The notes below the pieces were generated by a model. That model was given only the letters and a program-made list of their open reading frames with translations. It was not told the DNA's origin and made no database searches. Shown piece by piece: positions 2,590-23,900 of a stretch of 34,283 bases of DNA. Each line of letters starts with the position of its first letter. Within the stretch, counting starts at the first letter, position 1. This DNA comes from Catajapyx aquilonaris (taxonomy: Eukaryota): assembly GCA_000934665.2 (NCBI GenBank), contig JYFJ02000239.1, positions 124,001 to 158,283 of the forward strand. The letters are read 5' to 3'. A program made the translations under genes and the position numbers.

Positions 2590-2833
2590 TTTTTCGAAAT
2601 AATATTCCAGTCGAACGAACTAGACAATTCGCATGAGAACACGCCTCTGCATGTACTTTCGATTATCCGCCGCCAGATGGGAGAGTGATACGGTGGATGT
2701 TGTTGACAGATGGCCGGTAGAGGCGCTTTTTACGCTTCTCTTCACCACGCTACGACCACGCTGTCTCGTGCCCCGTGCTCTGCCCTCAGGAACTGAGGAA
2801 GTCAACTCCGCTGCAGCACAACATCATCAACTG
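2590..2833. promoter_or_regulatory. Bidirectional promoter between PFDN4 and zinc-finger copy 1, with CTCF-like motifs and a conserved 15-mer
   Basis: CCGCCAGATGGGAG (2670-2683), TGGCCGGTAGAGGCGCT (2711-2727) and CTGAGGAAGTCAACT (2793-2807). The latter two recur upstream of copies 2 and 3; the first recurs upstream of copy 3. Confidence 0.55.
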
Positions 2834-2901
2834 GTATTGTAGCACATTTTTGCTTCATTATTCCCATAAGTTGACATGTGCATTACTTTCAGTGTCGCAT
2901 C

Positions 2902-4659
2902 ATGAGTGCCGTGCCTGAAGAATCCCCACAGGCCGATGAGGATGTAGCTATTCTGCCTGTTGAGGTGTGGCTGTGCTCAGTGTGTGGTGAGGAGTTTGGA
3001 AGCAAGGATGGTCTGGAGATGCACCCGCAGTGTGTGAAAACGGCAGGTGACATGTTTACGTGCGATGCGTGTGGGGCTGATTTCATGGTTAAGTCTAGCT
3101 TGGATGCTCACCATAAAAGGTGCGAGAAGAAGACGAAAAAATGCTGGGATCCCGACTGCGAGCTCAAGTTTTCTCGCAGGTCGCAGATGATTGCGCATTA
3201 TTACAATGGGCATCTCCAGGGGAATTCTCAAGTTGTGTGCAAGGAATTTAAAACCATGGGTGATTTTTTTGAGTGGAAGGTGACTTTGGAGCTGCAAAAT
3301 TCTGGCCGCTATGTTAAGACGTGCTCTACAAGGATCCCGCAGGATAATGTGTTGTATTCATATTATGTGTGTCAGATGGATGGCTCCTCAAACTCTCATC
3401 ATACGAGAAACACGAAAGGCAGGTGGAAACGCGACTCATTTGAAACTGATCTGAATTGCTCTGCAAAGATGCTAGTTAAAGAGTACCCAGACAATGTAGT
3501 AGTGCATTTATGTGACTACCACACTCATTCCTTAAAATCAAAAAAAGGTTGGTTGGAGGTTTGTTACAGGGATGAGCGTCACCAGAGAGGCATGCAAATT
3601 TCCGGGGATGAGGTTATTCGTATTCAGGAAGGCACCTACATAGTCAACTCACAGTCTGATTCAGATACACCATACAAGGTAAAACTCTACTTTGATAAAT
3701 GTGAGATAGATTCTTGCTCTAAAACTTGCAGAGAGCCAGAATGCTTCGGTCTTTGTGGCCATATGTATCACTGCTTTTGCCCAGATGGCCGTCGAATGTG
3801 CAAGCACATTCACAAAGTCCATGCCATTAGACAAGCAGGCGATATTCCTATAAGTAGTAATCATGCATGGGACCTCAGAAGCGAGCAGACTTCATACTGG
3901 CTTGGTTCCAGGGACAAACGTCACTCTAGGGGCATGAATATCTCCAAGCATAATGTGCTTCGTGTTCAGGAAGGCACCTATGGAGTTGATTCACAGTCCT
4001 GTATATATACAAAATACACGGTAAAACTCTACTATGATCAATGTGAGAGGGATTCTTGCTCTACAATTTGCACAGAGCAAGGATGCATTAATCTTTGTGA
4101 CCATATGTATCACTGTTCTTGCCCAGATCCCTGTGAAACATGCAAGCACATTCACAAAGTCCATGCCATTAGAAAGGCAGGTGATATTCCTATTAGTGGG
4201 GATGCATATGATCTCCAAAGTGATGCAGAGACAGATACAGAGAAGGAGACGGATTCAGAGAAGGAGACTGATTCAGAGGAGGAGATGGATACAGATACAG
4301 AGCCTTCATGGTACTATAATAACTATAGTTATGGACGTTTCCCTGACCAACGTCACGATAGGGGCATGGGAATTCCCACGGATGATGTGGTTCGCATTGA
4401 GGAACGCGCCTACATAGTCAATTCACAGTCCTATTCAGATACACCGTACTCTGTAAAACTCTACTATGGTAAATGTGTTTCTTGCTCTAAAACTTGCACG
4501 CAAGGATGCGTTGATCTTTGTGGTCATATGTATCGCTGCTCTTGCCCAGATGACAATCTAATATGCAAGCACATTCACAAAGTCCATGCCCTTAGACGAG
4601 CAGGCGATATTCCTATAAGTGGGACCCCGAAAGTGTTGAAGAAGATGCCTCCCAAATAG
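2902..4659 (+). CDS. MULE-transposase-derived zinc-finger protein, copy 1 (585 aa): 3 C2H2/C2HC fingers, WRKY/FAR1-like domain, 3 tandem extended SWIM modules, no DDE domain
   Basis: ATG 2902 follows a probable 5'UTR intron 2834..2892 (gtattg...tttcag). Fingers CSVC..H, CDAC..HHKRC, CWDPDC..HYYNGH. Block FFEWKVTLE...YYVCQMDG...CSAKMLVK...CDYHTH. Three repeats of RH.RGM.I...Y.V.SQS...C..C..C..C..C.HMY.CxCPD....CKHIHKVH starting at ~3568, 3910 and 4342. Confidence 0.8.
   Translation: MSAVPEESPQADEDVAILPVEVWLCSVCGEEFGSKDGLEMHPQCVKTAGDMFTCDACGADFMVKSSLDAHHKRCEKKTKKCWDPDCELKFSRRSQMIAHYYNGHLQGNSQVVCKEFKTMGDFFEWKVTLELQNSGRYVKTCSTRIPQDNVLYSYYVCQMDGSSNSHHTRNTKGRWKRDSFETDLNCSAKMLVKEYPDNVVVHLCDYHTHSLKSKKGWLEVCYRDERHQRGMQISGDEVIRIQEGTYIVNSQSDSDTPYKVKLYFDKCEIDSCSKTCREPECFGLCGHMYHCFCPDGRRMCKHIHKVHAIRQAGDIPISSNHAWDLRSEQTSYWLGSRDKRHSRGMNISKHNVLRVQEGTYGVDSQSCIYTKYTVKLYYDQCERDSCSTICTEQGCINLCDHMYHCSCPDPCETCKHIHKVHAIRKAGDIPISGDAYDLQSDAETDTEKETDSEKETDSEEEMDTDTEPSWYYNNYSYGRFPDQRHDRGMGIPTDDVVRIEERAYIVNSQSYSDTPYSVKLYYGKCVSCSKTCTQGCVDLCGHMYRCSCPDDNLICKHIHKVHALRRAGDIPISGTPKVLKKMPPK
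4228..4302 (+). repeat. In-frame 18-bp minisatellite (~4 units) encoding the acidic linker ETDTEK-ETDSEK-ETDSEE-EMDTDT
   Basis: gagacagatacagagaag / gagacggattcagagaag / gagactgattcagaggag / gagatggatacagataca, between SWIM modules 2 and 3. Confidence 0.85.
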
Positions 4660-4860
4660 TAGAGGTGCTTGTTTCACATGAACTATCCAAATCAAACAAG
4701 GAAGACTGAATTTAACAAGTAATTATGTGCACTTGGAGAGTATGCTACAATTCGAAAGGTTCAAGTAACAATCTTGCCAGAAATTAGAAGGAAAGTCAGC
4801 GAATTACATGCTATGTGTGCAGCTGTTTGTAATGAGTGATCCTGCAGAACTCACTTTCAT
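4623..4860 (+). pseudogene. Decayed remnant of the C-terminal helical tail that is still coding in copies 2 and 3
   Basis: Aligns by eye to 9260-9510 and 12070-12330 (ILPEIRRK.SELHAMC.AVCN). It carries a ~13-nt frameshifting deletion, further small deletions and an AAA>TAA change. Confidence 0.8.
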
Positions 4861-5477
4861 GGGAAGAAACAATCTTTGGGACAAAAATGTAGATTGACTG
4901 TTTAATTACTGCACTAGCTGGTACACCTACAGATTTTTCAACTGACATGTGAATATGAGCATAACACTTGAACTTATGCTTGCAATGGCTTGATTCTTTA
5001 CCAGGTCAATGTGTAAGGTAATTAGGTGATTATCAAATGTTGCTGTAAAATGTAGTAAATTGACAAGCCAGGCCAACCACAATAACAAGGATGACGTGTG
5101 GGAACAATTTAGGTTACATAGCAGAAGTGTATGTGGTGCATAATATATGCAATTGGCCAATTGTTCCATGGCAAAACTACACTCATTTAAGCAGCATACG
5201 TTGTTTTTTTAAATATGAAAGTAGCACCTATATTTTCTAAAAGTGGACAATCATTCTATTGTTGGGATTTTTGCAATTAAAAGTAGCACGAGATGTCCAG
5301 TCTTGTGTCAAAAAACACGTGTTCTGAGAGGAAGTGACAATCATGTAAAGAAGAGATTTGCAATCATAAAAGGAATAAAATCATGCTCAGAAAGGGACGA
5401 TATATTTTTTAAGGACATGCAGTGTTTTGTATATTAATAATTTTACAAGACCTGGTGTTAGTGTTACACAGTGTATA

Positions 5478-5647
5478 CCGTATTTTACAGCACATGACGC
5501 ACAGGCGTATAAGATGCACCCGCATTTCAGTAGATCATATTCAGGAGAGAAAAAAACTTTAATTGTGTTGTCACATATAAGACTCAGGGCGATTTTTTGA
5601 GCCTTTTTTGGGGGATAAAAGTGTGTCTTATATGCCGTCAAATACGG
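5478..5647. mobile_element. ~170-bp MITE with terminal inverted repeats, at a TA site (Tc1/mariner/pogo-like)
   Basis: 5' TA|CCGTATTTTACAGCACATGACGCAC; the 3' end reverse-complements to CCGTATTTGACGGCATATAAGACACAC. The element is absent at the homologous position after copy 3 (~12910). Confidence 0.75.
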
Positions 5648-5964
5648 TGCAGTAATTATTTGGAATCAATGACGCTTAGTCACTAGTTATTCAGAATTAA
5701 AGAGCTACAGTATGCGGACTGAATTTGGTGAAGAACTGAATTAAATTGTGTTCATTTTGGCCATTTTTCATGTGGGTCCTCATTATGCAGATAATGTTCA
5801 GCAACATACCCACTTGACCTGTGTTACGGTACTTTGAAAACCAGATGTGGTTTATCATTGTGATTGGAATTTGGGCCTAATAATGTGTGAATGTCATTCT
5901 GACCTGTTTTTTTCTGTAGTTAAAAGTGCTAACTGTTCTGTAAACTGTTGGAAAAGTTTGGCCA

Positions 5965-7797
5965 TCCTTATAATAAAACAGAGTTTCTTTATTTGTTGGT
6001 GTATTTATGTGGGTATGTCACACCATTTTAACCCACTTCCCTAGTATCGAGAGTGCCGAAACTGGCCACACCCATGTCTTACATTTCGCTGATTCCGGGA
6101 AAAGTCCAGAAACTGCACTATTTTGAGTGTAAATGCCCCAAATGGTTTTTAAATACTGTTGTCTCATCTACAGCCACTGTTACCATGATGCTTCTACCCT
6201 CCCTCACTATTGTTGGTCAGTTGTTACCATTGACAGAGGTTGTTGGTAACCAAGGGACGTGTCATTGAGTATTTTGCTCGGCAGCGGCTGAGTTTAGCAA
6301 TGTACAGGCCTACTCTTACTAACCATACTGGGGCTGCTCAAAGCCCATGGCCGTCCCTTCTCGGGCTTCCCAAACTGCCGAACAATTACCGAACAATTAT
6401 TCAGCTACGGTACTCTACAACAGTTTAAAAGGTTTTTCATTTCACGGTTTACCTGTCTTTTCATATTGGGGGATCAAAATGTGCTCATCTGGGGGGTCAT
6501 CGCGAATTTCACAAGGCGATTTTTTTTTTTTTTTGGGATAACCTACGAGAAAGATTGGGAAGCACTGCCTCAAGGCCGCAAGACAATAATGCCAGGAAGG
6601 GAGATCACACAATGCCAGAAATAACTGTGGTACAGTACAGCGAGAAAAGAAAAGCAGTGTGACAAAAGACCAACAGGTGATGATGTGCGTAATAATGCGG
6701 CAAGAAATCATTGGCAAGAGGGTTATGAAAGTGGTTGACAAGAGAACAAAAATTTTAACATATTATTAGGCACTACATTACACTTGGGGATAACTTCTTT
6801 TGAATATGTACTGTACGTGTACCTGGAATATCATTGAAAAAAATCAATCCTGATCATTTATTGTGCCACTTATCACGACCTCAAGACGTAACGACACTAT
6901 AAATAATAGAATCATTTTTATCAAGCTGCATCATGTCCCTGCAACATTGCACCCCATACGTTAAGTCCTTGGCAACTTCGGATGAAGCCTGGAAGTGTTG
7001 CACCTCTGGATGTTGCAATAAGGGATGTTGCCATGTTGACATGAGTAGTGTTTCTCAGAGGGATTTCCCCGCCCTCTTTTCCTCGTGTAACTTGTTCGCC
7101 CTTTTCCTATCTATAGGCTCCAAAGTCCAAACTGAAATCTAAACCGACGGTGTCTGCGTGGACGTGAGTTCTCAACGCATCTGAATAGGGCCCATTGTGG
7201 CACTGGTTGTTCCTGCTGCTGAGCAGCCCAGGCACCCAGCTCTCATCAAATAGTGTTGTTCATTGTTTGGTTCTTTGGTACATTACCAAATAGTAACGAT
7301 TCAGAACAGTATTGTACCCAGTGATACTTTCATTGCTGCTTGAGACTGGTCCGAGTATTGCGTGGCATATGATCATTACCTGGCACAGACATGTAGACTG
7401 TGAGGTGAACTGAGGTAGGGTATCTGTTGCATACACAAGGTGTAGCTTTTGTTAATACATTACATAATTTCATGAAATACTGGCGCTGTTGGGCCACAAC
7501 AGGTCTTGCTCATGTGACATGTTCCAGGCCATCACTCCACGAGCACAGAGCATTTTACACTCCCTCTGACTTAGCTCACACTATGCAGGTTTTATGTTTT
7601 ACTAACGCCTTTCATTTTTCAATCCTCATGCCTCATCCTCATGCTCCCCTGGCACACACTGATGGTTTACATGCCCCCGATTCAGGGAAAAGTGCACTTT
7701 CTTGAGTCTAAATGACTAAAATTGGCACTAAAATTTAGGATTTTCCCGGTACTCTACCATGGATGTATGCCGTGCGAAGAATGGGCTCTAGTGATAG
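5965..7797 (+). mobile_element. Non-autonomous Helitron-like insertion (~1.83 kb)
   Basis: Starts A|TCCTTATAATAAAA. Ends with the imperfect hairpin CCGTGC-GAA-GAATGG (7770-7784), then CTAG (7788-7791) or ATAG|T (7794-7797). No TSD. Removing it restores ggcca-tagtttataaaataataatggtt, matching the uninterrupted gggca-taagttattaaataatggtt at ~10616-10640. No Rep/helicase ORF seen. Confidence 0.7.
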
Positions 7798-8173
7798 TAG
7801 TTTATAAAATAATAATGGTTCATGTTATTAAAATTCTTTTTTATTCTGCACCGATGAAACATGGAAGCCACAGTGCTTATTCATAATTGAATCCAGTGAA
7901 TTAACCTGCATATACAGGAACTGTGCCTAGTTATGTAGTTTAATGTAGTTTGATCCGACTTGATAGGTCAGCTAGAGGCGCTTCTTACTACTATCCTCTC
8001 GTGTGCGGCTGTGCAGTGTACACCACAGTCGTATGTGTCGCTGCCCTGAGGAAGTCAACTACGCTGCGGAACAACACCTATTCCTTTGATTTCTTGTCAA
8101 CATTGGTGGTATGGCTGCATGCTTTTGCTTCATTAAACCGTAAATCCACGTACATTCCTTTCAGTGTCGCATC

Positions 8174-9507
8174 ATCAGTGCCAGGCGTACAGCATCCGCA
8201 CCAGGCTCATCTGCAACCGCTTCCAGAGGTGTAAAGACAATGCCGCCAACAATGCCGCGATTTTCTTGCTCAGCATGTGGTAAGGCATACAGATCGAAGG
8301 AGAGTGTGCAGAGGCACATACTGTTCTCATGTTATGAGCAGAGTGAGAAAACGGCATGTGATATGTTTCCATGCAATGCGTGTGGGGTTACTTTCAAGAA
8401 TAAGGGCACCTTGGTTGTTCACCGTAAAAGCAAGAAGTGCATCAAGAAGACGCTGGAGAACAAACACTTGAAAGGCTGCTGGGATCCCGGCTGCGAGCTC
8501 AGTTTTTCTCTTAGGTCGCAAATGATTGCGCATTATTACACTGCTCATCTCCAGGGGAATTCTCTAGTTGAGTGCAAGAAGTTTAAAAACATGAGTGATT
8601 TTTTTGAGTGGAAGGTGACTTTGGAGCTGCAAAGTTGTACCCGCTACATTAAGATATGCTCTACGAGGATTGTGAAGGATAATGTGTTGTATTCATATTA
8701 TGCTTGTCAGATAGATGGTTTCTCAAAGCCTCATACTGCGAGAAAAGCAGAAGGCAGGTTGATACCCGGATCAATTAAAACTGATCTGAATTGCCGAGCA
8801 AGGATGATTGCCAAATCCGCCAATCCGCCAAATCCGGACAGTGTAGTCGTGCATTTGTGTGCCTACCACACTCATCCCTTGGAATCAAAAATTGTGATGG
8901 CTGTGATGTTTCCAAAGAAAGAGGTAAGTATAGGATCAATGAGCGAGTTTCACGGATGCTTAATTACCGTGACGAACGTCACTATAGGGGCATGCGAATT
9001 CCCAGGAATGATGTGGTTCGAATTCAAGAGGGCACCTACATAGTCTATTCACAGACCGATATAGATACACCATACACGGTAAAACTATACTATGATCAAA
9101 TATGTGGGTCGGATTCTTGCTATAAAACTTGCAGAGAGCCAGGATGCTTTGATCTTTGTGGTGATATGTATCACTGCTTTTGCCCAGATCCCAGTCTAAT
9201 ATGCAAGCACATTCACAAAGTCCGTGCCATTAGACGGGCAGGTGATATTCCTATAAGTAGTAGGGATGCATCTTACCTCGGAAGTGTTGTAAATGATGAT
9301 TCTGAAATAGTAGAGGAGTCTGTTTCACAGGAGCTGCCGAAATCGAGCAAAGAAGACTTGACTGAATTTAACAAGAAATTGCGTGCCCTCGCAGAGTATG
9401 CTGCAATGCCAAAGATTCAAGGAACAATATTGCCAGAAATGAGAAGAAAAATCAGTGAATTACATGCTACTTGTGCAGCTGTTTGTAATGAAAGTGACCC
9501 TGCATAG
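8174..9507 (+). pseudogene. MULE-derived zinc-finger gene, copy 2: start-codon loss and frameshift; may still encode a 267-aa finger/WRKY-only product from ATG 8240
   Basis: The start homologous to copies 1 and 3 is ATC (8174-8176), in frame with ATG 8240. Homology is split over ORFs 8240..9043 (fingers, WRKY-like) and 8791..9507 (SWIM, tail). One extra A in the A5 run 8887-8891 would fuse them. The SWIM module has H>D and H>R changes. 5'UTR intron 8109..8164. Confidence 0.7.
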
Positions 9508-10167
9508 CTCACTTTCAGGGGAGGAAAAGACATCAATGCTCACATACAATCTTTGGGACGAAATGTAGATTGACTGTTAGATTGACTGTTTAATTACTGC
9601 TCCAGTTGGTACGCGTACAGGTTATTCAACTAACAAATTAATATGAGCATAATACCTGGACTTATACTGGCAATGGCTTAGTTCTTTACCACTTAATGTG
9701 TAAAAGGTGATTAGGTGTTTATCAAAATGTTGTTGCAAAAGAAACTGATGAGTCAGACAAACCACAAATGACAAGGATGACATTTGGGAACAATTTTGAT
9801 CACACAGCAGGTGTATGTGATGCATTTATCCATTGTTTCACATGTGGCAGAACTACACTCATTTCAGCTGCATGAGTGTTTTTTTTTTAAAGTATGAAAG
9901 TAGCACTTATAGTTTCTAGCAGTGGACAATCATAATATTGTTCGGGTTTTTGCAATTAAAAGTGGCAAGAGATGACAATGTTGTGCCCAAAAAAACATCC
10001 TGGTCCTGAGAAAAAAGTGATAGCCATATGTGAACAAGCAATCTCGTACAATCATAAAAGGCATAATAATGCACAGAAAGGGATGATGTATTTTCTTAAG
10101 GATATGCCATACGTGTTTTGTACGAATAATTTTTCCAAGATATGGTGTTAGTGTCACATAGTGTATA

Positions 10168-10314
10168 CCGTATATGACGGCATATAAGATGCACCTGCAT
10201 TTCAGTAGATTATGTTCAGGGGAAAAAACTTTCATTATATTTTTTCGCATATAAGCGATTTTTTGACCCATTTTTGGGGGGAAGAGCGTGTGTCCTATAT
10301 GCCATCTATTACAG
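10168..10314. mobile_element. MITE, paralogous copy of 5478..5647 at the same relative position
   Basis: TA|CCGTATATGACGGCATATAAGATGCAC ... GTGTGTCCTATATGCCATCTATTACAG|TA, with the same flanks as the first copy (gtgtata...cagtaattatttggaat). Confidence 0.72.
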
Positions 10315-11002
10315 TACAGTAATTATTTGGAATAAAATATGACGCTAAGTCACTAGTTATTCAGAATTAAAGAGCTACGTGGACTGAAATTGCTGAAGAA
10401 CTGAATTAAAATTGTGTTCATTTTGGAATTTTCCCATGTATAGGTCGTCATTAAGCCCATGCTGTTCATCTACATGCCCAATTGGCTAGTGTTAATTTGA
10501 AAACCAGATGTGGTTTAGCATTGTGTTTGGAAATAGGTCCTAATAATGTGCAAATCTGATTCTGGCCCGTTTATTTCTGTAGTTAACTGTTCTCTGTAAA
10601 CCGCTGGAAAAGTTTGGGCATAAGTTATTAAATAATGGTTCATATTTTTTTTGTTATTTTAAATTCTGCACTTATGGAACATAGCCACTGTGCTTAATAA
10701 TTGATTCCAGTGAAACCTCCATAAATAATAAGAGTGTCATTTCCTGGACAATTTTCATATCGGAGTGTGTACACGACTGCTCCGCCGCCAGATGGCAGAG
10801 TGAGCTGATGTAGTTTGCATTGTTTGAGAGGTGGCCACTAGAGGCGCTTTTTACGACTCTCCAGCCGTTCCCTGAGGAAGTCAACTCTGTTGCTGGAGGA
10901 CAACACAAATTCCTTTGGTTTCTTGTCAACATTGGTGGTATGGTTGCATCCTTTTGCTTCATTATGCCGTAAGTTAACGTGCGTTCCTTTCAGTGTCGCA
11001 TC

Positions 11003-12382
11003 ATGAGTGCAGAATCCGCGCAGGCGTCATCTACAACCACTTCCAAAGGTGTAACGATGCCTCGAGTGAAGGTATGGCTGTGTTCAGCATGTGGTAAGCA
11101 GTACAGCAGGAAGGATAACCTGCGGAGGCACACACAATCGTGTGGTTTGGAGCCGACTAGGACGAAAACTTTGTTTTCGTGTGATGCGTGCGGGGTTGCT
11201 TTCAAGCTTAAGGCTAGCCTGGCTGGTCACCATAAAAGCGGGAAATGTGGCAAGAAGACGCTGGAGAAGAAAAGATGCTGGGATCCCGGCTGCAAGCTCA
11301 AGTTCTTTCACAGGTCGAAAATGATTGCGCACTATTCGGATGCGCATCTCCAGGGGAATTCTCAGGTTGTGTGCAAGACGTTTAAAAACATGGGTGATTT
11401 TTTTGAATGGAAGGTGACTTTGGAGTTGAAAAGTTTTACCCGCTATGTTAAGACTTGTGGTACAAGGATGTCAAAGGAGAATGTGTCTTATTTGTATTAC
11501 GCTTGTCAGAGGGATGGCTCGTCAAAGCCTCACGCTGCGAGAAAAACTGAACGTAGGTTGAAACGCAGCTCAGTTAAAACTGATCTGAATTGCCCTGCAA
11601 GGATGCTAGTTAAACAGTATCCAGACAAGGTAGTAGTGGATTTCTGTAGCTTCCACACACATCCCATAAAAGAAGAGCGGACTGATAGCTTGCCAAAGAG
11701 AAAGAAAAGTAAGAAAACAAAAAGTGCAGAGAAGGATACACAAACTTTGTTAACCAAAAGAGGCACGAAGGTTGGTCGGAACAATGACAGCCGTCACTGT
11801 AACGGCATGCAAATTTCCGGGGATGATGTGGTTCGTATTCAGGAAGGTACATACATAGTTACTTCACAGTCTAACTCAGAAATAGCATACTCTGTAAAAG
11901 TAAAGTTTGACAAATGTATAGCTGATTCATGCTTCGAAATTTGCACAGAGCCAGAATGCTTTGATCTTTGTGGTCATTTGTACCATTGCATGTGTTCAGA
12001 TGTGAGTCTAATGTGCACGCACATACACAAAGTTCATGCCATTAGACGGGCAGGCGATATTCCTATAAGTGGTAGGCATGCATGTGACCTCAGAAGTGTT
12101 GCAGAAGATGTTTTCCAAATAGTAGAGGTGCCGGTTTCATATGAATTACCCAAATCAGTAGAGGAAGACTTGACTCAACTGAATGAGGAATTAGATGAAA
12201 TTTCACAGTATGCTACAATGCCAAAGATTCAAGCAACAATATTGCCAGAAATTAGAAGGAAAATCAGTGAATTACATGCTATGTGTATGGCTGTTTGTAA
12301 CGAAAGTGATCCTGCACCACTCGCTTCCATGGGAGGAAAAGATATCAAAGTTCACATACACACTTCGATTAAAAATGCATAG
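11003..12382 (+). CDS. MULE-transposase-derived zinc-finger protein, copy 3 (459 aa): 3 fingers, WRKY/FAR1-like domain, basic NLS-like linker, 1 extended SWIM module, helical tail, no DDE domain
   Basis: Intact ORF from ATG 11003 after 5'UTR intron 10938..10993. CSACGKQYSRKDNLRRH, CDAC..H, CWDPGC..HYSDAH; YYACQRDG...CPARMLVK...CSFHTH; KRKKSKKTK; CGHLYHCMCSD....CTHIHKVH. Confidence 0.82.
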   Translation: MSAESAQASSTTTSKGVTMPRVKVWLCSACGKQYSRKDNLRRHTQSCGLEPTRTKTLFSCDACGVAFKLKASLAGHHKSGKCGKKTLEKKRCWDPGCKLKFFHRSKMIAHYSDAHLQGNSQVVCKTFKNMGDFFEWKVTLELKSFTRYVKTCGTRMSKENVSYLYYACQRDGSSKPHAARKTERRLKRSSVKTDLNCPARMLVKQYPDKVVVDFCSFHTHPIKEERTDSLPKRKKSKKTKSAEKDTQTLLTKRGTKVGRNNDSRHCNGMQISGDDVVRIQEGTYIVTSQSNSEIAYSVKVKFDKCIADSCFEICTEPECFDLCGHLYHCMCSDVSLMCTHIHKVHAIRRAGDIPISGRHACDLRSVAEDVFQIVEVPVSYELPKSVEEDLTQLNEELDEISQYATMPKIQATILPEIRRKISELHAMCMAVCNESDPAPLASMGGKDIKVHIHTSIKNA

Positions 12383-13505
12383 TAGATTGCAGGTTATTTA
12401 ACCCAACTGGGTGCTCACAGTGGCTGGGTTCTTTATCCTTTAATGTGCAAGATAATTTGATGATTATTTAAATGTTACAGGTGGAAGTGTGGCATAAGAT
12501 GGCAGTAAATGGATGAGTCAGATTATCAGTTGAAAAGCAGTCAGATATGGTAACTGACCACAACAACAAGCATGACATGTGGGAACAGTTTAGGTTATGC
12601 ATCAAGTGTACTTGGTGCATATCTGGAAAAAACTATACTAATTAAAAATGAAAAAACACCTATATTTTTAACCGCATACAACATGTTTATGTTTTTGCAA
12701 CAAGTGATGAAAGGTGCACATTCTTGTGCCCAAAAACACTTAAAGTATTCTGAAAGGAAGTGATAACCATGTAAACTATTCAATAATATTGTAAAAGGAA
12801 ACGTCATGCACTGAACGAGATTGTATTTTTCTTAAGGAAATGCAGTGCTACTAATATAATGGTTTTTGTATGTCAATAATTTTATAAGGTATGGTGCAAG
12901 TGTCAACTAGTGTACAATTTTTTGGACTAATCACTATTGATTCAGAATGAAAAAAGAACGTGGACTGAATTTGACGAGGAACTGAACTAAGTTGTTCATT
13001 TTGGGAATTTTTCATGTAGGTCTTCATTAAGCAGATGTTCAGCGACATGCCCAATTGGCTAGTGTTAATTTGAAAACCAGACGTGGTTCATCATTGTGAT
13101 TGGAATATGGGCCCAAATTATGCATAAAACTCATTCTGTCCTGTTTTTCTGTAGTTAAGAGCTAATTGTTCTGAAAACGGTTGGAAAATTTTGGCCATAA
13201 TAAAATTTTCTTCTTTTCTGTTATACACCTATGGAACATGGAAGACGTAATTGAATCCTAGAGTGAAGCCTGTAAATAGTGGGCTTGTGCCATTTCATGA
13301 AAATGTTATACCTCAGAATGTCCACTACATCAGACACCATTCAGAACCGGGAAAGAATTTACAGTGCATTTACTTGTCAGAATATTGGTGCCACAAATTC
13401 GCATGCTTTTTGAATCTGGGCCCACATTCAGCTAAAGAGGGCAATTTTTCATGCCCTCAAGCCCATAATTTGTCCCAATCCTTATTTGCAGAAGTTGCGA
13501 TCAAT

Positions 13506-17991: not shown

Positions 17992-20900
17992 TCACTCGAG
18001 ATGCCTGTATTTGTGTGCGGACATCTGCGAGAGGCCGAGCACGGCATAATGGCACTTGAGGCAGTGGTAGTGGGTCTGTTTCTGGTTGTGTGCACAACCT
18101 TCTACGCTGCAGTTCTGGGATGGGGTGAACTTCTCGAAGCCTGCCGCCATGATGGAGTCCAGCTTCTGGTGTTGGCGACGGTGAGCCACCACCTTGTTAG
18201 TGTCTGTGCACACAAAGTCGCACTTGAGGCAGTGGAAATGGGATGCCTTGTTTTGCATTGTGCCTGGAAGGGACAAGAAAAAGGCTGGCATTATTGGCGT
18301 AGTTTGTCAAATCATGGCCAGCTCAGTATGTAAGGCTGCCGTTCACCATACATTTAAGTTGAAGAGTATAGAGACTTACCAAGCGTAGAAGTGTAGATGC
18401 AGTCAAATCTCCCACATGGCACGTTGGCTCTGAACTGCTGGAAATCACCACCCATGAGGGTGTCAAGTCTCTCATGCCTGGCGGTGTGTTGCACAAACCG
18501 CGTCTTGTCACAGAAGCTGTACCCGCAGTCCTTGCGGATGCAATGGAAGTGTGTCTGGTGCTCCCTGTACCCACAGTGGGGGTACTTGCAGTCCTCGTTG
18601 AAACGGAATCGGATGTATCCCTCAGGGACAGGCTCGTCCTTCAGGATACGCAAGCTGGACTGGATACGTGCCTTCTTCGCCTCTGGGCTCATGTCCAGTC
18701 CTCCGCAAACCATCCCCACCCTCTTGGTGCCTAGCATGGAAGGGGTTGTGGATGATGGGCCCTCCCCTTCAGTGCTAGGAGACATCTGGGTTGGACTCAG
18801 CTCTGGCTTCATAGCCCCAGGCATTCCCCCAGGCATTGCCACAGGCATGGACCCAGGCATGGCCCGGGCTAAGGTTGGGGTCGCAAACATCATCCCACTG
18901 GCGGTGGTGTACAGGGCGGGGATGCCATGCTGCATGAGGGGAATCCCTTGAGATGTCAGGAGGGCATAAGGGGAGTTGGCCAGCATCTCTGGGAAACCAG
19001 GAGGGTGTCCGCTGTGGGGCGGTAGTTGAGAGAGGGATGGGTGGTGCTGAAGGGACGGATGGGAAGTAGGGGGCAAGGGTAGCTGCATCTCACTCAGGTG
19101 GCGTGGCATCTCGTACTTCACTGTGGATGGGTGAGAACAAGGTAAAAATAAGACAAGGTTCCAGAAATATGGACCACTAATAAACGACAAAGGATGCCAC
19201 AGAAAATTTTTACAAATGCAAGAGTATATTATGCAAGTATGGAAAAAGTGTTTAAAATGGTAAATTATATGCTGCTTACTAGAAGTCATTATGTCTTGTG
19301 GACTGGATGAGTCTGAGCTCTCATCATGTGCATGCGAATCCGAAGGAGATCCCTTGTCTGATTCATCTTCCCCATCTCGTCGAGTACTGTTTGGGCTAAG
19401 AGCACCACTACTGTGCTTCTGAATATGAGGCCTCAGCTTATCCAACTCCGAGAAGGCCTGGAATTAAATAAACGTAATAATTAGTAAGTATGAACTACAC
19501 GCAATTTTTGTCAAAGGTCTAACTTGTTCAACCAACCTGATTGCAAGCATGGCAGTGATAATGGTCTTTCCTCTTAAGCTTGCAGAACGGCCTTCCACAT
19601 GACTGATCCGGACCGTACTTGGTTGGCCGATCTAGAAGAGACCAATCGAAGCGGCTCATTTCGGGGCTAGGCTGCTGCAGAAGTTTGGTCAGAGCATGTT
19701 GGTCCCCTCCCATCATGGCCTCCATTACAGACGCATCTAACAAGAAAGGCAACAATGTAGAAATCCTCTTGGAGAGTAATTTAAAGTCTCTCGAGTTACA
19801 CAGAGCTATTTGCAACGAATTGTCCCCATTCCCAAATTTATAAATTCTGTAGGTGTTGGATATTTCTACAATATTATTGTGCTCTAGAACCATTTTGTCG
19901 CTGCCCCTGGATTAGTACGACAGACCCTACCTCACAAACTTGGTTACAAGACACATTGCACACACATTGTTGTGGTGTCATCATCACAACCCATGCACTG
20001 ATACATTTTTAACATAGAGAAAGTATATAAAAAAAATCACACACACATAAAGAAAAAAAAAACCAACTAAACATGAATATAATCCGAAGGCACCTTATGA
20101 TTGTGATTGAAAGTAAATTAATTTTTGTCCACGGGTAACTCACTTTGCTTATAGTCATCGGCTCCGTTCTGATCCACGATCCCACCTGGCTTATTGGGGG
20201 AAGAAGGGTTTGAAGAGATGGGGGACGTGGCTGTAGAGGTGGTATTGGACTCACACTTCACCACCTTGCCCTGGGGCAATGAGGTAGGGAACGCTGAGAG
20301 AGGATAGTAAGTGCCTGCTGCCTTCACAACTGCAAGAGGGATAGAGATAACGGGAGCTCCGTCAGCAAGCAGGTTGGAAAGCAACAGATTCATGCTATTT
20401 TTTTATTTATTTTTTTTCCTTTTCAATTGTCTTGTTCTGTTCGATCACTTTGCCTCACAAAAAGGATTAGTTTAAGATTTTTTTCTTTGAGTGCATTCCC
20501 ATGCAACAGGTTCTGAGTCTGATTTGCATTCTTTTAATGTTATTTTCAAAAAAGGTGTCTTGCAGATCATACTTCATGTACAGGCCAGTGTTGCAACATT
20601 CTGCAGAATTACGTTTTGTTAGGTGGTTTAGTCATACACATGTGAAAAATATCACCAGCCTCTCCCCAAAAAACCGCCTGTGTCTGCAATGTGTTCAGCC
20701 TAAGTGATATAGACGCCCCCCTTCCAGACCCTGTCCAAGTAAGTCACCCCTACCTGTAATCTTGGGTGGTGTGTCCGAAGACGGTGGAGGTGCAGGGGAA
20801 TGAGAGGACCTCGGACTGCTGCCATCATCCCGCTGCCTCCCCGACTCAGTAGTGGTGGTAGTGGTGGTGGCCGATGCTGAAGAGGATTCTGAAGTTGGCT

Positions 20901-23900
20901 GATGATGCTCCCCTCCTTCCTCTGCACTATCTTTGCTGTGAGTCTGCTCGTGAACAGCCATGGTGGAGTATCGCACAAAGGTAAAGCCACAGTTTGGACG
21001 TGTGCAGTGGAAATGACGGTTCACTTTATTGCTGGAAAGGAAGACAAGTGTGTGTTAGTTTATAAATACTGAGCAATCCGTTAAATACGTGGTCTAAAAG
21101 CAAATTACTGTATCAGAATTTCAGTTTTCTACCAGTCATGTTTACCTGGGACAAGCAGGGTGACGACAGTCGATGGTGCGGTCGAAGAAAACAAAACCTT
21201 CCATGATGTCGATATTGTCGTGGAAATCCTTGGAGTGCATTATAAGCATTTCCTCCTTATCCGTGACATAGAAGCACCTTGGCTGGCTGCAGTGAAAATG
21301 CTGCTTCCCGTATGATGGGCAGAGCAGGTCGGGACATGGGCTTCCATTGGCAAATACGTAGAAGCCCTCCTGCACCTCCGTCTTGGTATTCGAAGCCTCA
21401 CTAGACTCCCCACTGGCAGCCAGGTGCTGCGCCATCAGGTGGGGCGGAATGGTCATCATGGGCTTCATTCCCAAGGGACTGTGTGACGGGGAGGACCCAG
21501 GCATGGCCTCCTCTGCTGACTGCATGGCCGTCGGGGTGGCCATCAACCCTTGCCCGGAAGTGGGGCAGGCCATGGGCATCATTGGCTTGGGGAGCTTGAA
21601 GCTGGTGAAGATGGCCTGAGGCATGTCTGGCAGGCCGTGACTAGCAGACATTGGGAACTAGAAGGAAGACAAAACCATGAATAAAATTTTGGAAGTCAGC
21701 AGTTAAGACATTATTATTCTGGGTTTATGTTCAGTGCAGGGTACAGCTTCCAAGTCACAAGCAAAGCATTTGAAGTGTTAAAACATGCAAAAAGCCAATA
21801 AAAGGGTGAGTTTTCTGCTATGTAAAACATGTCCAAAGAAAAAATTATTCATGACTACAGATTGTCATTGAACACTTTACACTTTTCTACAAAGATGTTC
21901 TCAATTATTTTATTGACTTGCAAGATGTGCCCCACGTCCTCTAAGAGTGTTTCTGGGAGTTAGCTCTGTTTATTTTTGTCTTAAAATTGCTGAATATGTT
22001 ATGTCAAGGGTGAAAATAGGAGAATAATAACTCCCAGATACAAGAAAATATAACTTACATAATCGTTCCAGACCTGAAATTGAAAAAAGTTTGGGAATTT
22101 GTACTACACTTAAACAATGGCCCTCCAAATGAACTTAGACAGTGAAAATCATTGCCACAGCAGCAATACATTACAATGACATAAATGTTGCCATGTGCTC
22201 ACCTCAATAACTCTGTTTTTAGGTGGGCGACCCCGCTTCCTCTTGAACAGTCCGTCGATGGAAGTAGTCAGGGTCATGGTCATTGGATCCTTGGACATGT
22301 TGAGCTTCCGGGAATATTCATGCATTTTGTAGTGGTCGAGACGGCGGAAAGGCTTGTCCGTGGGCATAATCACCTCACGACAATTATCCTGTGACAAAAT
22401 ATGTGGTACATTTTAAACACATATCCACAGCACAGAGTAGAATATTGTTTTAATTAATTTGCATAACTTACCCAAGTACAGTGGTAATGCTTGAGTCTGT
22501 TCTGATGTATACACTCGGTAGGACATTGACAAGGCTCCTGACCTGCCTCCGTGACATAATAGAAGGAGGCCGTCACCTGCTCCTGCTGCTCATGGTTTCT
22601 CGCATGTTCCCTCACCCCATCCTTGGACCGGAAGGCCATGTCGCACCCCTCGGCATAGCAGTGGTAGTGGTCCTTGTACTGGAACTCACACTCTGGCTTG
22701 CACTTGTCATGGGGTGCGAACCGGGTCAGGTACTTCTTCCAAATCTCCTCCTGTTGGGCTTTCAGCATGTCATTGGTCAGATCCATCGCGGCCAAGTTTT
22801 CTGCCGTTAGCAATGAGGGAGGGACTGCTGTTGGGGGCATGGCGTACTGCAGGACACCGGAAGGATCAAGTCCAGTCATGAGGGACGCAAACCCGGCATA
22901 AGGATTGACTTGTCGCTTGGTGGCAGGGAGGGGACTGGTGGTGCTGGGGTTGTCCATGGGGAGGCCGTTTGTGCAGGGGATGGCCGGAGGGGGCTGCTGG
23001 TCCAAGTCCTTGGTCTCCGCCGATGTGGTACCAACTGAGGAGGATGACGACATGGACGAGGACGACATCACTCCAACAGGGCCCTGGATCACTGACGTTT
23101 GGATGGCAGATGGCTCATGCTGTGACAACTGCAGAGAAGGGACATGCAATATAGTTATCTATATATCGCTCGACTGAGGACCAAGTACAGTACTTTTCCT
23201 TATGGGATTTTCCAGCCTGTGCAATAATTCTAGCTATTGGTACGGCTAATCTACTCTTGGTACTGATAATGGAGGTAACAAGAAATGCAAGGTGGATCAA
23301 AAGTTACCTGATCAGTGATGTGGTGCATGGCGACAGGGCTTATGCTGAGAGAGTGCCCATCGCCCATGGTCTTCATCATACTCTGAGCCAGCTTGAACTT
23401 TCGGTAGGCCAACTCATTGTCTTTCCTCTCATGTTTCCTTTTGTGAGAGTACAGCTGCCCACTAGAGTGCAACACGTAGCTGCAACCCGGACGGATGCAG
23501 TGGATGTGGTTGCACACCCTGGAGAATCTGCAGTTTTCAAAGCAGCAGTACTCGTGCTTCATAAACTTCTTGAAGCCATCCTTGATCAGCTGCTCATCCT
23601 TGATGTGGTATGACTTATGCTTCTCCATGTCTGCCTTGTTCTTGAACGTATACTTGCAGCCTGGCCTCCTACAGTGAAAATGTGTGGTTCGCTGGCCAAA
23701 GAAGGAGCAGTAGGCCGCAGAACAGTCCTCGGTGGCCCTGAACCTCTGGAACCCTTCTTGTATGATGGCCGAATCCTTCCGGTGGTAGTTGGCATGCATC
23801 TGCACATCTGATGTGCTAATGTACACCTTATCACAGCCCTCCTGCAAGAACGCAATAAGTCACACCACTCTCCAATTGGTAAGCAACTACAGACTAACCT

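Follow-up and report, generated by a model that had tools for sequence, protein, structure and literature searches.

Three tandem Mutator-related genes

The stretch of DNA analysed here, 34,283 nt of contig JYFJ02000239.1 from Catajapyx aquilonaris (hereafter the window, 34 kb), carries three paralogous open reading frames (ORFs) on the same (+) strand, P1, P2 and P3, between about 2.9 and 12.4 kb. Their products appear to be the two ends of a transposase of the Mutator-like element (MULE) type, joined without the catalytic core. The coding regions are as follows.

2902-4659, + strand: P1, 585 amino acids (aa), with three C2H2 fingers, a WRKY/GCM1 domain and three SWIM-like modules; tail lost
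8240-9507, + strand: P2, present in the window as two overlapping frames (8240-9043 and 8956-9507)
11003-12382, + strand: P3, 459 aa, intact, with the shortest branch among the three

In pairwise comparison, the proteins are 53-64% identical and the aligned coding DNA is 73-77% identical. Protein alignments reveal one domain order in all paralogs, namely C2H2 fingers, a WRKY/GCM1 (FAR1-type) block, a linker and a Cys-rich SWIM-like module. The finger region consists of two clear C2H2 fingers and a third finger of the form C-x4-C...H-x4-H. The WRKY/GCM1 block is marked by the motifs F..WK, YY.CQ.DG, LNC.A.M and H.H and is followed by the variable linker, and the SWIM-like module carries RH..GM...V.S...Y.V and then a Cys cluster ending in CxCx6CxH and KHIHKV. 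The original prediction, made from the letters of the sequence, had described three paralogs with this motif order and about 13-45 aa between the HTH residues and the RH..G motif. The ORF list and the protein alignments bear out the order, and the measured spacing from HTH to RH, 16 aa in P1, ~36 aa in P2 (with the 7 bases described below counted) and 43 aa in P3, is close to what was claimed. To this can be added that the module of P1 is tripled and that its tail is lost.

3562-3891, 3925-4230 and 4345-4641, + strand: the three SWIM-like (RH..G/Cys-cluster) modules of P1 (alignments, repeat families)
~4660-4840, + strand: tail remnant of P1, degenerate, out of frame and with stops, downstream of the P1 stop codon (repeat families)

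Modules 2 and 3 of P1 are separated by an in-frame 18-nt acidic repeat at 4228-4295. An 80-residue C-terminal tail is present in P2 and P3 and missing from P1.

The reading frame of P2 is broken in the window at ~8924-8956, the result of a 7-base gap after position 8929 (8929/8930). Seven extra bases follow 8929 in all three public sequencing runs compared (two samples from two studies, with one organism code throughout), and each run supports them at full depth. The added bases shift the downstream frame by one, and in a reading by hand the region 8240..9507 is joined into ~424 codons with no stop. The P2 frameshift is false and absent from the organism, and the gap reflects an assembly error or else a rare allele. 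An intron as the cause of the break was rejected, as the GT..AG options measure only 10-24 nt and leave the frame unrestored, and the 7-base gap explains the break. At the ancestral ATG (~8173), which is used by P1 and P3, P2 reads ATC, and its frame is open to the in-frame ATG at 8240.

An exact look-up of the P3 sequence in the protein collection showed it to be absent there. No Rfam family was matched in the window, and a scan for bacterial-type promoters and terminators was uninformative here.

Descent from a Mutator transposase and loss of the catalytic core

A profile of the two conserved parts was searched with HMMER against 1.84 billion representative proteins, which yielded 615 relatives at E<=1e-3 and 170 at E<=1e-10. 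Many of the 615 are MULE transposases of 750-1200 aa, matching in two stretches around a MULE/RNaseH-like core; the named relatives come from lobster, krill and thrips. When 40 relatives were scanned with Pfam, MULE and/or ZSWIM1-3_RNaseH-like was found in 22, Ulp1 protease also in 7 and OTU protease in 1. The two parts are separated by 319-392 residues in 43 full-length rows (of the 55 tree rows with both parts, see below) and by 8, ~30 and 35 residues in P1, P2 and P3, respectively.

The lobster protein XP_042237447 illustrates the relationship. By BLASTP, P3 residues 60-231 align with its residues 162-337 (37%, 2e-30) and P3 residues 242-347 with its residues 683-793 (40%, 1e-18), while its RNaseH-like domain, at 453-557, falls within the stretch that P3 skips, so that ~345 core residues are left without a counterpart. 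When 10 full-length relatives were compared with the six frames of the window by tblastn, only the N and C parts were matched, plus the tail for two queries, and no match of their core residues better than E 0.1 was obtained anywhere in the 34 kb. Likewise, no window protein matched Pfam MULE (PF10551) or PF21056. Bipartite matches to full-length MULE proteins of arthropods, interrupted by a large gap in the middle, had been named beforehand as a test of the original prediction; BLASTP, tblastn and profiles all returned them, and the claim that the whole DDE core is absent holds with them. Descent of P1-P3 from a MULE transposase, with loss of the entire DDE/RNaseH-like core, is well supported by these comparisons of sequence, and the predicted proteins cannot cut DNA.

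Full-length arthropod MULEs, such as those of Homarus americanus (XP_042237447, 989 aa) and Meganyctiphanes norvegica (CAL4123493, 1110 aa), have the same domain order, including the helical tail, at 30-43% identity. They differ from the window genes in carrying 357-392 more residues with the MULE/ZSWIM1-3 RNaseH-like domain, and some add Ulp1 or OTU.

Two further searches were of limited use. The best ESM Atlas matches for P3 were arthropod C2H2 and MULE+C2H2 clusters (0.85-0.89), a lead only, and the part without fingers gave no usable match there. A word-indexed homolog search with P3 returned none at E<=1e-3 and was superseded by the HMMER search.

Domains and predicted structure

The structure model of P3 (m59d3b08d9b30), based on an 87-row alignment, has a mean predicted local distance difference test (pLDDT) score of 77.5, with the domains mostly >90; a single-sequence AlphaFold model of P3 was useless (pLDDT 36.5). 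The following parts are distinguished, all on the + strand.

11072..11347, + strand: three beta-beta-alpha (C2H2-type) fingers, P3 residues 24-115 (model, PDB sequence and fold matches, Pfam zf-C2H2)
11363..11671, + strand: predicted WRKY/GCM1-fold (FAR1-type) zinc-binding DNA-binding domain, P3 residues 121-223 (Pfam, fold matches)
11672..11776, + strand: Lys-rich linker, P3 residues 224-258, of which 232-258 are predicted to be disordered; it occupies the position of the core (357-392 residues in relatives)
11777..12076, + strand: SWIM-like module, P3 residues 259-358, with RH..G, beta strands, C..C..C..C..C.H and then CxCx6CxH (alignment A4, ZSWIM8 match)
12158..12304, + strand: helical hairpin tail, P3 residues 386-434, a predicted homodimer interface (model, pair folding, tblastn)

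The fingers are recognised by Pfam zf-C2H2 in P2 above the cut-off (E 5.9e-11, 42.6 bits) and in P3 at 17.7 bits, under the cut-off of 25.2; their sequence matches in the PDB are C2H2 arrays, such as Aart at 1e-11. The next domain is modelled as a four-stranded sheet; relatives conserve its C168, C197 and H218 (with H220 in HTH). Fold matches to this domain and to the SWIM-like module were obtained by a structure search independent of Foldseek; those of the sheet domain are given with the Z score, the root-mean-square deviation (rmsd) and the number of aligned residues.

Aft2-DNA (4lmg): Z 7.8, rmsd 2.7, 81 aligned
WRKY1: Z 5.9, rmsd 3.0, 59 aligned
WRKY33: Z 5.9, rmsd 4.1, 75 aligned
GCM: Z 5.5, rmsd 6.7, 88 aligned

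Because all Z values are below 8, each of these matches is supportive and undecisive. Foldseek with the P3 model against the PDB gave none at E<=1e-3, its list being filled by C2H2 arrays. The WRKY-GCM1 fold was tied to MULE transposases by Babu et al. (PMC1702500). The earlier assignment of a FAR1-type (WRKY/GCM1) domain thus finds backing in the fold matches and the conserved zinc ligands, whereas the Pfam FAR1 score falls under its cut-off.

Three features make the C-terminal module SWIM-like, namely the CxCx6CxH pattern, the place it occupies and a modest resemblance in structure to ZSWIM8. The pattern is present in five of the five window modules, and in full-length relatives the module is placed after the core. 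The near or fully invariant Cys ligands of alignment A4 (C46, C51, C55, C60, C64, C70, C72, C79) and His81 are kept in all five, and the module His H66 is Asp in P2. Against ZSWIM8 chain 128-217, the match is modest (Z 5.7, rmsd 3.8, 82 aligned, 22% identity) and scores under the level at which a merely common arrangement would be excluded; the SWIM domain of ZSWIM8 is placed at residues 172-208 (PMC13083262). A PDB profile search with the module gave chance-level matches only (E>=0.31). The module is called SWIM-like, rather than the SWIM finger that had been claimed, because Pfam SWIM found no match and the Z values are below 8; pattern, post-core position and the ZSWIM8 match speak for the assignment.

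After a second disordered stretch in the model (P3 residues 363-383), the protein ends in the hairpin tail. Two full-length relatives, P0007 (906-1090) and P0029 (536-712), align through this tail by tblastn, and it would therefore have been inherited from the transposase. When P3 259-445 was folded in two copies with ESMFold2, with the alignment unused, the homodimer score was 0.56, compared with 0.00 for the best control. The score mark is reached by 21 of 30 proteins solved as one-chain pairs and by 0 of 23 single chains (eukaryotes: 17 of 29 and 0 of 30). Across the pair runs, contact agreement was at least 64% and partner pLDDT at least 66, and the interface was formed by hairpin residues 386-432. 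The folding supports, but does not show, that the P3 tail pairs two chains.

Recurrent core loss among arthropod relatives

A tree was built with IQ-TREE (LG+C20, 230 columns) from 55 rows with both parts, in which the P2 row is a composite of the two ORF pieces. Dropped from it were four near-identical cluster members (P0151, P0153-P0155) and the relatives in which two narrow domain profiles did not both score, including P0043, P0053, P0123 and P0147, which have contiguous matches. Twelve of the 55 rows are core-less, namely the three of the window and nine of the 52 from the database; two of the nine belong to one 90% cluster, and in P0062 the envelopes overlap and the branch is long. The core-less label changes nine times on the tree, at least five of which are forced by well-supported branches. 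A single origin for all core-less proteins was rejected, since 0% of 200 bootstrap trees placed them in one group. The window trio forms a 100/100 clade on a long branch (1.48), and its nearest full-length row is the lobster protein.

Some core-less rows look like genes. The thrips RefSeq model of Frankliniella occidentalis (LOC113206152, XP_026277878, 465 aa), P0002 and the P0010 cluster, the last two with ORFs of 427-460 aa on contigs of 1.7-2.4 kb, share architecture and length with P3, at 24-28% identity overall. These and the other core-less relatives are scattered among full-length rows on the tree and represent a different gene from P1-P3. As the unnamed contigs may derive from DNA or RNA, some of the unnamed core-less ORFs could be splice forms. 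Two further core-less rows retain 119-136 residues between the parts together with a Ulp1 protease, and because of this protease they are considered transposon copies.

Multiplication of the C-terminal module has parallels as well. Tandem SWIM-like modules with acidic linkers like those of P1 are found in ORFs of other species, namely P0013 (three) and P0022, P0024 and P0077 (two each). Modules cluster within each protein, which argues for independent amplification in each; an ancient triplication common to P1 and P0013 was rejected on the same ground.

As judged from the tree, the core-less architecture is a recurrent arthropod theme that has arisen at least five times among the relatives, and it is not unique to the window genes. 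Such recurrent, independent origin suggests that the architecture has been selected repeatedly or that a mutational hotspot underlies it.

Tandem units and flanking DNA

Each gene lies within a larger duplicated unit, for which repeat finding and a three-way DNA alignment gave the following features.

2770..5940, + strand: duplication unit 1 (P1), comprising upstream motifs, a putative leader intron, the coding region and ~1.3 kb of 3' flank (three-way DNA alignment, direct-repeat families D1-D20)
8023..10600, + strand: duplication unit 2 (P2), which abuts unit 3 directly (repeat finding, three-way DNA alignment)
10871..13170, + strand: duplication unit 3 (P3) (repeat finding, three-way DNA alignment)
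2718..2807, + strand: upstream motifs TAGAGGCGCTT.TTAC and CTGAGGAAGTCAACT, common to all three copies (alignment)
2834..2892, + strand: putative 59-nt intron in the 5' untranslated region (5'UTR) of P1, GT..polypyrimidine..CAG (sequence reading, alignment)
8109-8164 (P2) and 10938-10993 (P3), + strand: homologous 56-nt GT..AG stretches (sequence reading, alignment)

The units measure ~2.3-3.2 kb, their homology extending from ~130 nt upstream of the TTTCAG|TGTCGCATCATG junction to ~0.8-1.3 kb past the stop. Units 2 and 3 are offset by 2787-2829 nt within the coding part and by 2573-2749 nt in the 3' flank, and a spacer of ~2.1 kb separates unit 1 from unit 2. That a gene-like unit was amplified in tandem is well supported. 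In all three copies, the GT..AG stretches (59, 56 and 56 nt) have TTTCAG as their last bases, directly before TGTCGCATCATG, and resemble a short 5'UTR intron. Of the homologous leader intron and shared promoter motifs claimed earlier, the homologous stretches and two motifs in every copy are confirmed, and the status of the intron remains putative. One contig of a sequencing run that covers parts of the units ends at 8164, the predicted acceptor of the P2 leader intron, with 12 unaligned letters; this is a weak hint at most and is unused as evidence.

The upstream motifs of copy 1 lie ~130-220 nt from the first exon of a divergent prefoldin gene, which in turn lies tail to tail with an Elongator gene.

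1744-2590, - strand: three-exon prefoldin beta-type (PFDN4-like) gene (Pfam Prefoldin_2, E 3.6e-8 and 6.5e-5 on two exons)
946-1656, + strand: Elongator Iki1/ELP5 ORF (Pfam E 3e-11), whose closest named relative, from locust, is 31% identical, in keeping with an arthropod-like host

The claim of tandem amplification beside the PFDN4 promoter agrees with the repeats, the three-way alignment and the prefoldin exons, which stand head to head with unit 1. The arrangement suggests a divergent promoter region shared by copy 1 and the prefoldin gene. The shared upstream motif with ..CTAGAGGCGCTT.. lies at 2710-2733, 7975-7995 and 10830-10852, and copy 3 reads CCACTAGAGGCGC, which may resemble an insulator (CTCF-type) site minus one base.

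Terminal inverted repeats (TIRs), reported as absent in the original prediction, were not found at the unit ends by repeat and inverted-repeat search. The only inverted pairs in the region are 14-28 nt long with 78-89% complementarity, and none lies at the homologous ends of all three units. One inverted repeat of 27-28 nt (78-89% complementary) occurs at 5477-5503/5622-5648 and 10167-10194, inside the 3' flank common to units 1 and 2. In one DNA contig, 10194 is connected to 5523, which hints at a rearrangement or mis-assembly between these units. Summed contig depth, which is not a copy number, is 24-55 over the genes and 28-33 over the prefoldin promoter. In the spacer parts 5488-6931 and 7293-7653 it reaches ~100-800 (again not a copy number), with many loose ends and internal joints, and these parts are probably high-copy repeats inserted after the duplication.

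Evidence for selection

Ratios of non-synonymous to synonymous substitution (dN/dS), calculated pairwise by the Nei-Gojobori method, are 0.46-0.82 in the N-terminal part and 0.40-0.93 in the modules; the tail gives 0.40. Synonymous divergence (dS) is 0.23-0.67, and pairs that include P3 have a dN/dS of ~0.4-0.5. Indels whose length is a multiple of three account for 8/12, 8/13 and 6/7 of those in coding DNA and for 5/31, 6/31 and 8/28 of those in the flanks. In neutral trials, a frame of 459 codons stays open in 1.2%, 0.5% and 0.06% of cases at 8, 10 and 12% substitution, respectively, and here three frames of 424-585 codons are all open (P2 by the reads). The branch of P3 measures 0.057, and those of P1 and P2 0.24 and 0.29 after a shared 0.27. 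Owing to the short branch of P3 and the lower dN/dS in pairs with it, P3 resembles a conserved parent, with P1 and P2 as diverging or decaying daughters. Although mixed, the evidence suggests that P1-P3 are fast-evolving genes maintained under selection.

Relation to known MULE-derived proteins

Truncated transposase derivatives that keep DNA binding are already known as regulators, the P-element KP protein and plant FRF proteins among them. The KP repressor, an internally deleted transposase product and the subject of two papers by Lee et al. (1996, 1998) cited in PMC7776569, is reported to bind DNA, to dimerise and to inhibit the transposase at its sites. The analogy to P1-P3 is functional, in that DNA binding and dimerisation are reportedly kept in KP and catalysis lost. 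KP differs in belonging to another superfamily (THAP domain, P element) and in being encoded by mobile copies with TIRs, whereas P1-P3 are encoded by TIR-less tandem units.

Among domesticated transcription factors with a host role unrelated to transposon control, FHY3/FAR1 in plants and Aft1/Aft2 in yeast are parallels. The plant FRS/FRF proteins (FHY3, FAR1; FRF1-4) are MULE-derived, as are P1-P3, and DNA-binding, as P1-P3 are predicted to be, but FRS proteins keep the core and FRF proteins keep the FAR1 domain only, without SWIM, whereas P1-P3 have had the middle cut out and retain the two ends. The earlier statement that domesticated plant MULEs retain the core holds for FRS proteins, but truncated FAR1 forms occur in plants as well: the FRF proteins are proposed to compete with FRS proteins for DNA sites (PMC6000157), and FAR1 genes of reduced length, the F and FM types, arise mostly via premature stops (PMC8599713).

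In animals, ZSWIM1/3 also carry a FAR1-type domain, and the cores of the relatives match Pfam ZSWIM1-3_RNaseH-like (PF21056), an RNaseH-like domain. The SWIM region of vertebrate ZSWIM8 is the sole solved fold of neither WRKY nor C2H2 type that matches the C-terminal module (Z 5.7). ZSWIM8 itself is a cullin-ligase receptor without a WRKY/GCM1 block, and P1-P3 show no sequence-level ZSWIM membership. Arthropod MULE clades include 'Ghost', with SWIM and no TIRs found, and 'Spectre', with C2H2, TIRs of 74-76 bp and 8 bp duplications (PMC6446971), and FHY3-like genes are mentioned for some animals (PMC10027918). No animal MULE-derived protein with the C2H2/WRKY-GCM1 block and the SWIM/dimer tail but with the core excised was found to be described in the main text of open-access papers and bioRxiv preprints. 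If active, P1-P3 would provide a tractable case of protein-level Mutator control in animals and a natural experiment on the function of the SWIM module alone.

Proposed mechanism and alternatives

It is proposed, tentatively, that P1-P3 are non-catalytic, dimeric DNA-binding proteins, most likely KP-like inhibitors or regulators of Mutator elements. A single MULE transposase gene would have lost its catalytic core and given rise to a tandem family of three host-resident genes, which would retain the DNA-recognition block (three C2H2 fingers plus WRKY/GCM1) and the SWIM-like module, with the hairpin tail in P2 and P3. The proteins would be made and enter the nucleus, possibly aided by the Lys-rich linker in P3, and dimers formed via the tail would bind ancestral transposase sites, namely the termini of related MULEs or sequences that derive from these. 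Inhibition or repression would be trans-dominant, by occupancy of these sites or by drawing full-length transposase into dead complexes. This KP-like role is favoured because of four observations, namely fast lineage-specific evolution, tandem diversification, repeated birth within transposon clades and the lack of a conserved ortholog, which appear more in line with a conflict gene than with a conserved transcription factor. The domesticated regulatory system envisaged in the original prediction is plausible. A broader scenario, improbable at present, is that arthropods repeatedly make Mutator brakes by core excision and that the window holds one captured as a host cluster and diversifying in an arms race by tandem duplication and SWIM multiplication.

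Several points weigh against this proposal. Expression of P1-P3 is something that we infer, and a cognate full-length MULE, or MULE ends, as the target of inhibition in this genome is presumed. Between P1 and P2, dN/dS is 0.7-1.0 (1.04 for the first two fingers, 0.93 for P1 module 2), and coding DNA, at 73-77% identity, diverges as fast as the flanks, at 74-80%. P1 is without the dimerising tail, and P2 is without the ancestral start codon. The best Pfam FAR1 (PF03101) score, 23.7 bits (E 8.3e-5), is under the gathering cut-off of 28.1; at the thresholds used, Pfam SWIM (PF04434) matched none of 16 modules and none of 8 full-length relatives; and all fold matches of P3 domains have Z < 8. Identity to the closest full-length relatives is only ~30-40% in the parts they have in common with the window genes.

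Three other explanations bear on the same evidence. P1-P3 may be domesticated transcription factors with a host role unrelated to transposon control, in which the C2H2 and WRKY/GCM1 domains read promoter sites and the SWIM-like module and tail recruit partners. The protein evidence is the same as for inhibitors, the units resemble genes with a promoter, that of unit 1 probably in a divergent region common with the housekeeping prefoldin gene, and the SWIM domain of ZSWIM8 organises a protein assembly (PMC13083262). This explanation is nevertheless somewhat unlikely: conserved host transcription factors would usually evolve more slowly, whereas here constraint is weak, the copies decay unevenly, no relative above ~40% identity is found in a library from 15 billion proteins, and the trio stands alone on its long branch with no ortholog clade. 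Alternatively, the genes may be functionless relics of an internally deleted MULE that lost its ends, was duplicated by unequal crossing-over and is drifting to pseudogenes. With this agree the dN/dS of up to 0.8-1.0 for P1 vs P2, coding DNA conserved no better than its flanks, the degenerate P1 tail, the loss of the first ATG and the His to Asp change in the P2 module, as well as the commonness of internal deletion in the family (9/52 database rows are core-less, some with Ulp1 protease). Drift is considered unlikely, however, given that all three copies retain open frames, 424-585 codons long, at a dS of 0.23-0.67 (neutral trials give <=1.2% for one frame), that indels keep the frame in coding DNA and not in the flanks, that zinc ligands are retained, that the sole frameshift is a gap of the window absent from the reads and that the P3 branch is very short (0.057 vs 0.24 and 0.29).

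Finally, the genes might still be parts of mobile, non-autonomous MULEs, or encode a second product of an active element, with ends that escaped recognition. The relatives are transposon proteins, 'Ghost' MULEs of arthropods are described without recognisable TIRs (PMC6446971), and high-copy repeats lie between units 1 and 2. Mobility is very improbable all the same, as unit 3 follows directly on unit 2 in the same head-to-tail direction and the two have flanks in common instead of independent insertion sites, no inverted repeats lie at the unit ends, and the copies, 73-77% identical in coding DNA, are far from near-identical; the depth over the genes, similar to that over unique flanks, is weak evidence in the same direction.

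Other features of the window

At ~26290, the window contains at least one N (X in the translated frame), which corresponds to an assembly gap or an ambiguous base. Further upstream, at 17992-23859 on the - strand, lies a large multi-exon gene with many zinc-finger repeats of the H-x-H-C type and low-complexity Pro/Ser/Met, to which Pfam zf-C2H2 gave weak matches only; it may be castor/CASZ1-like.

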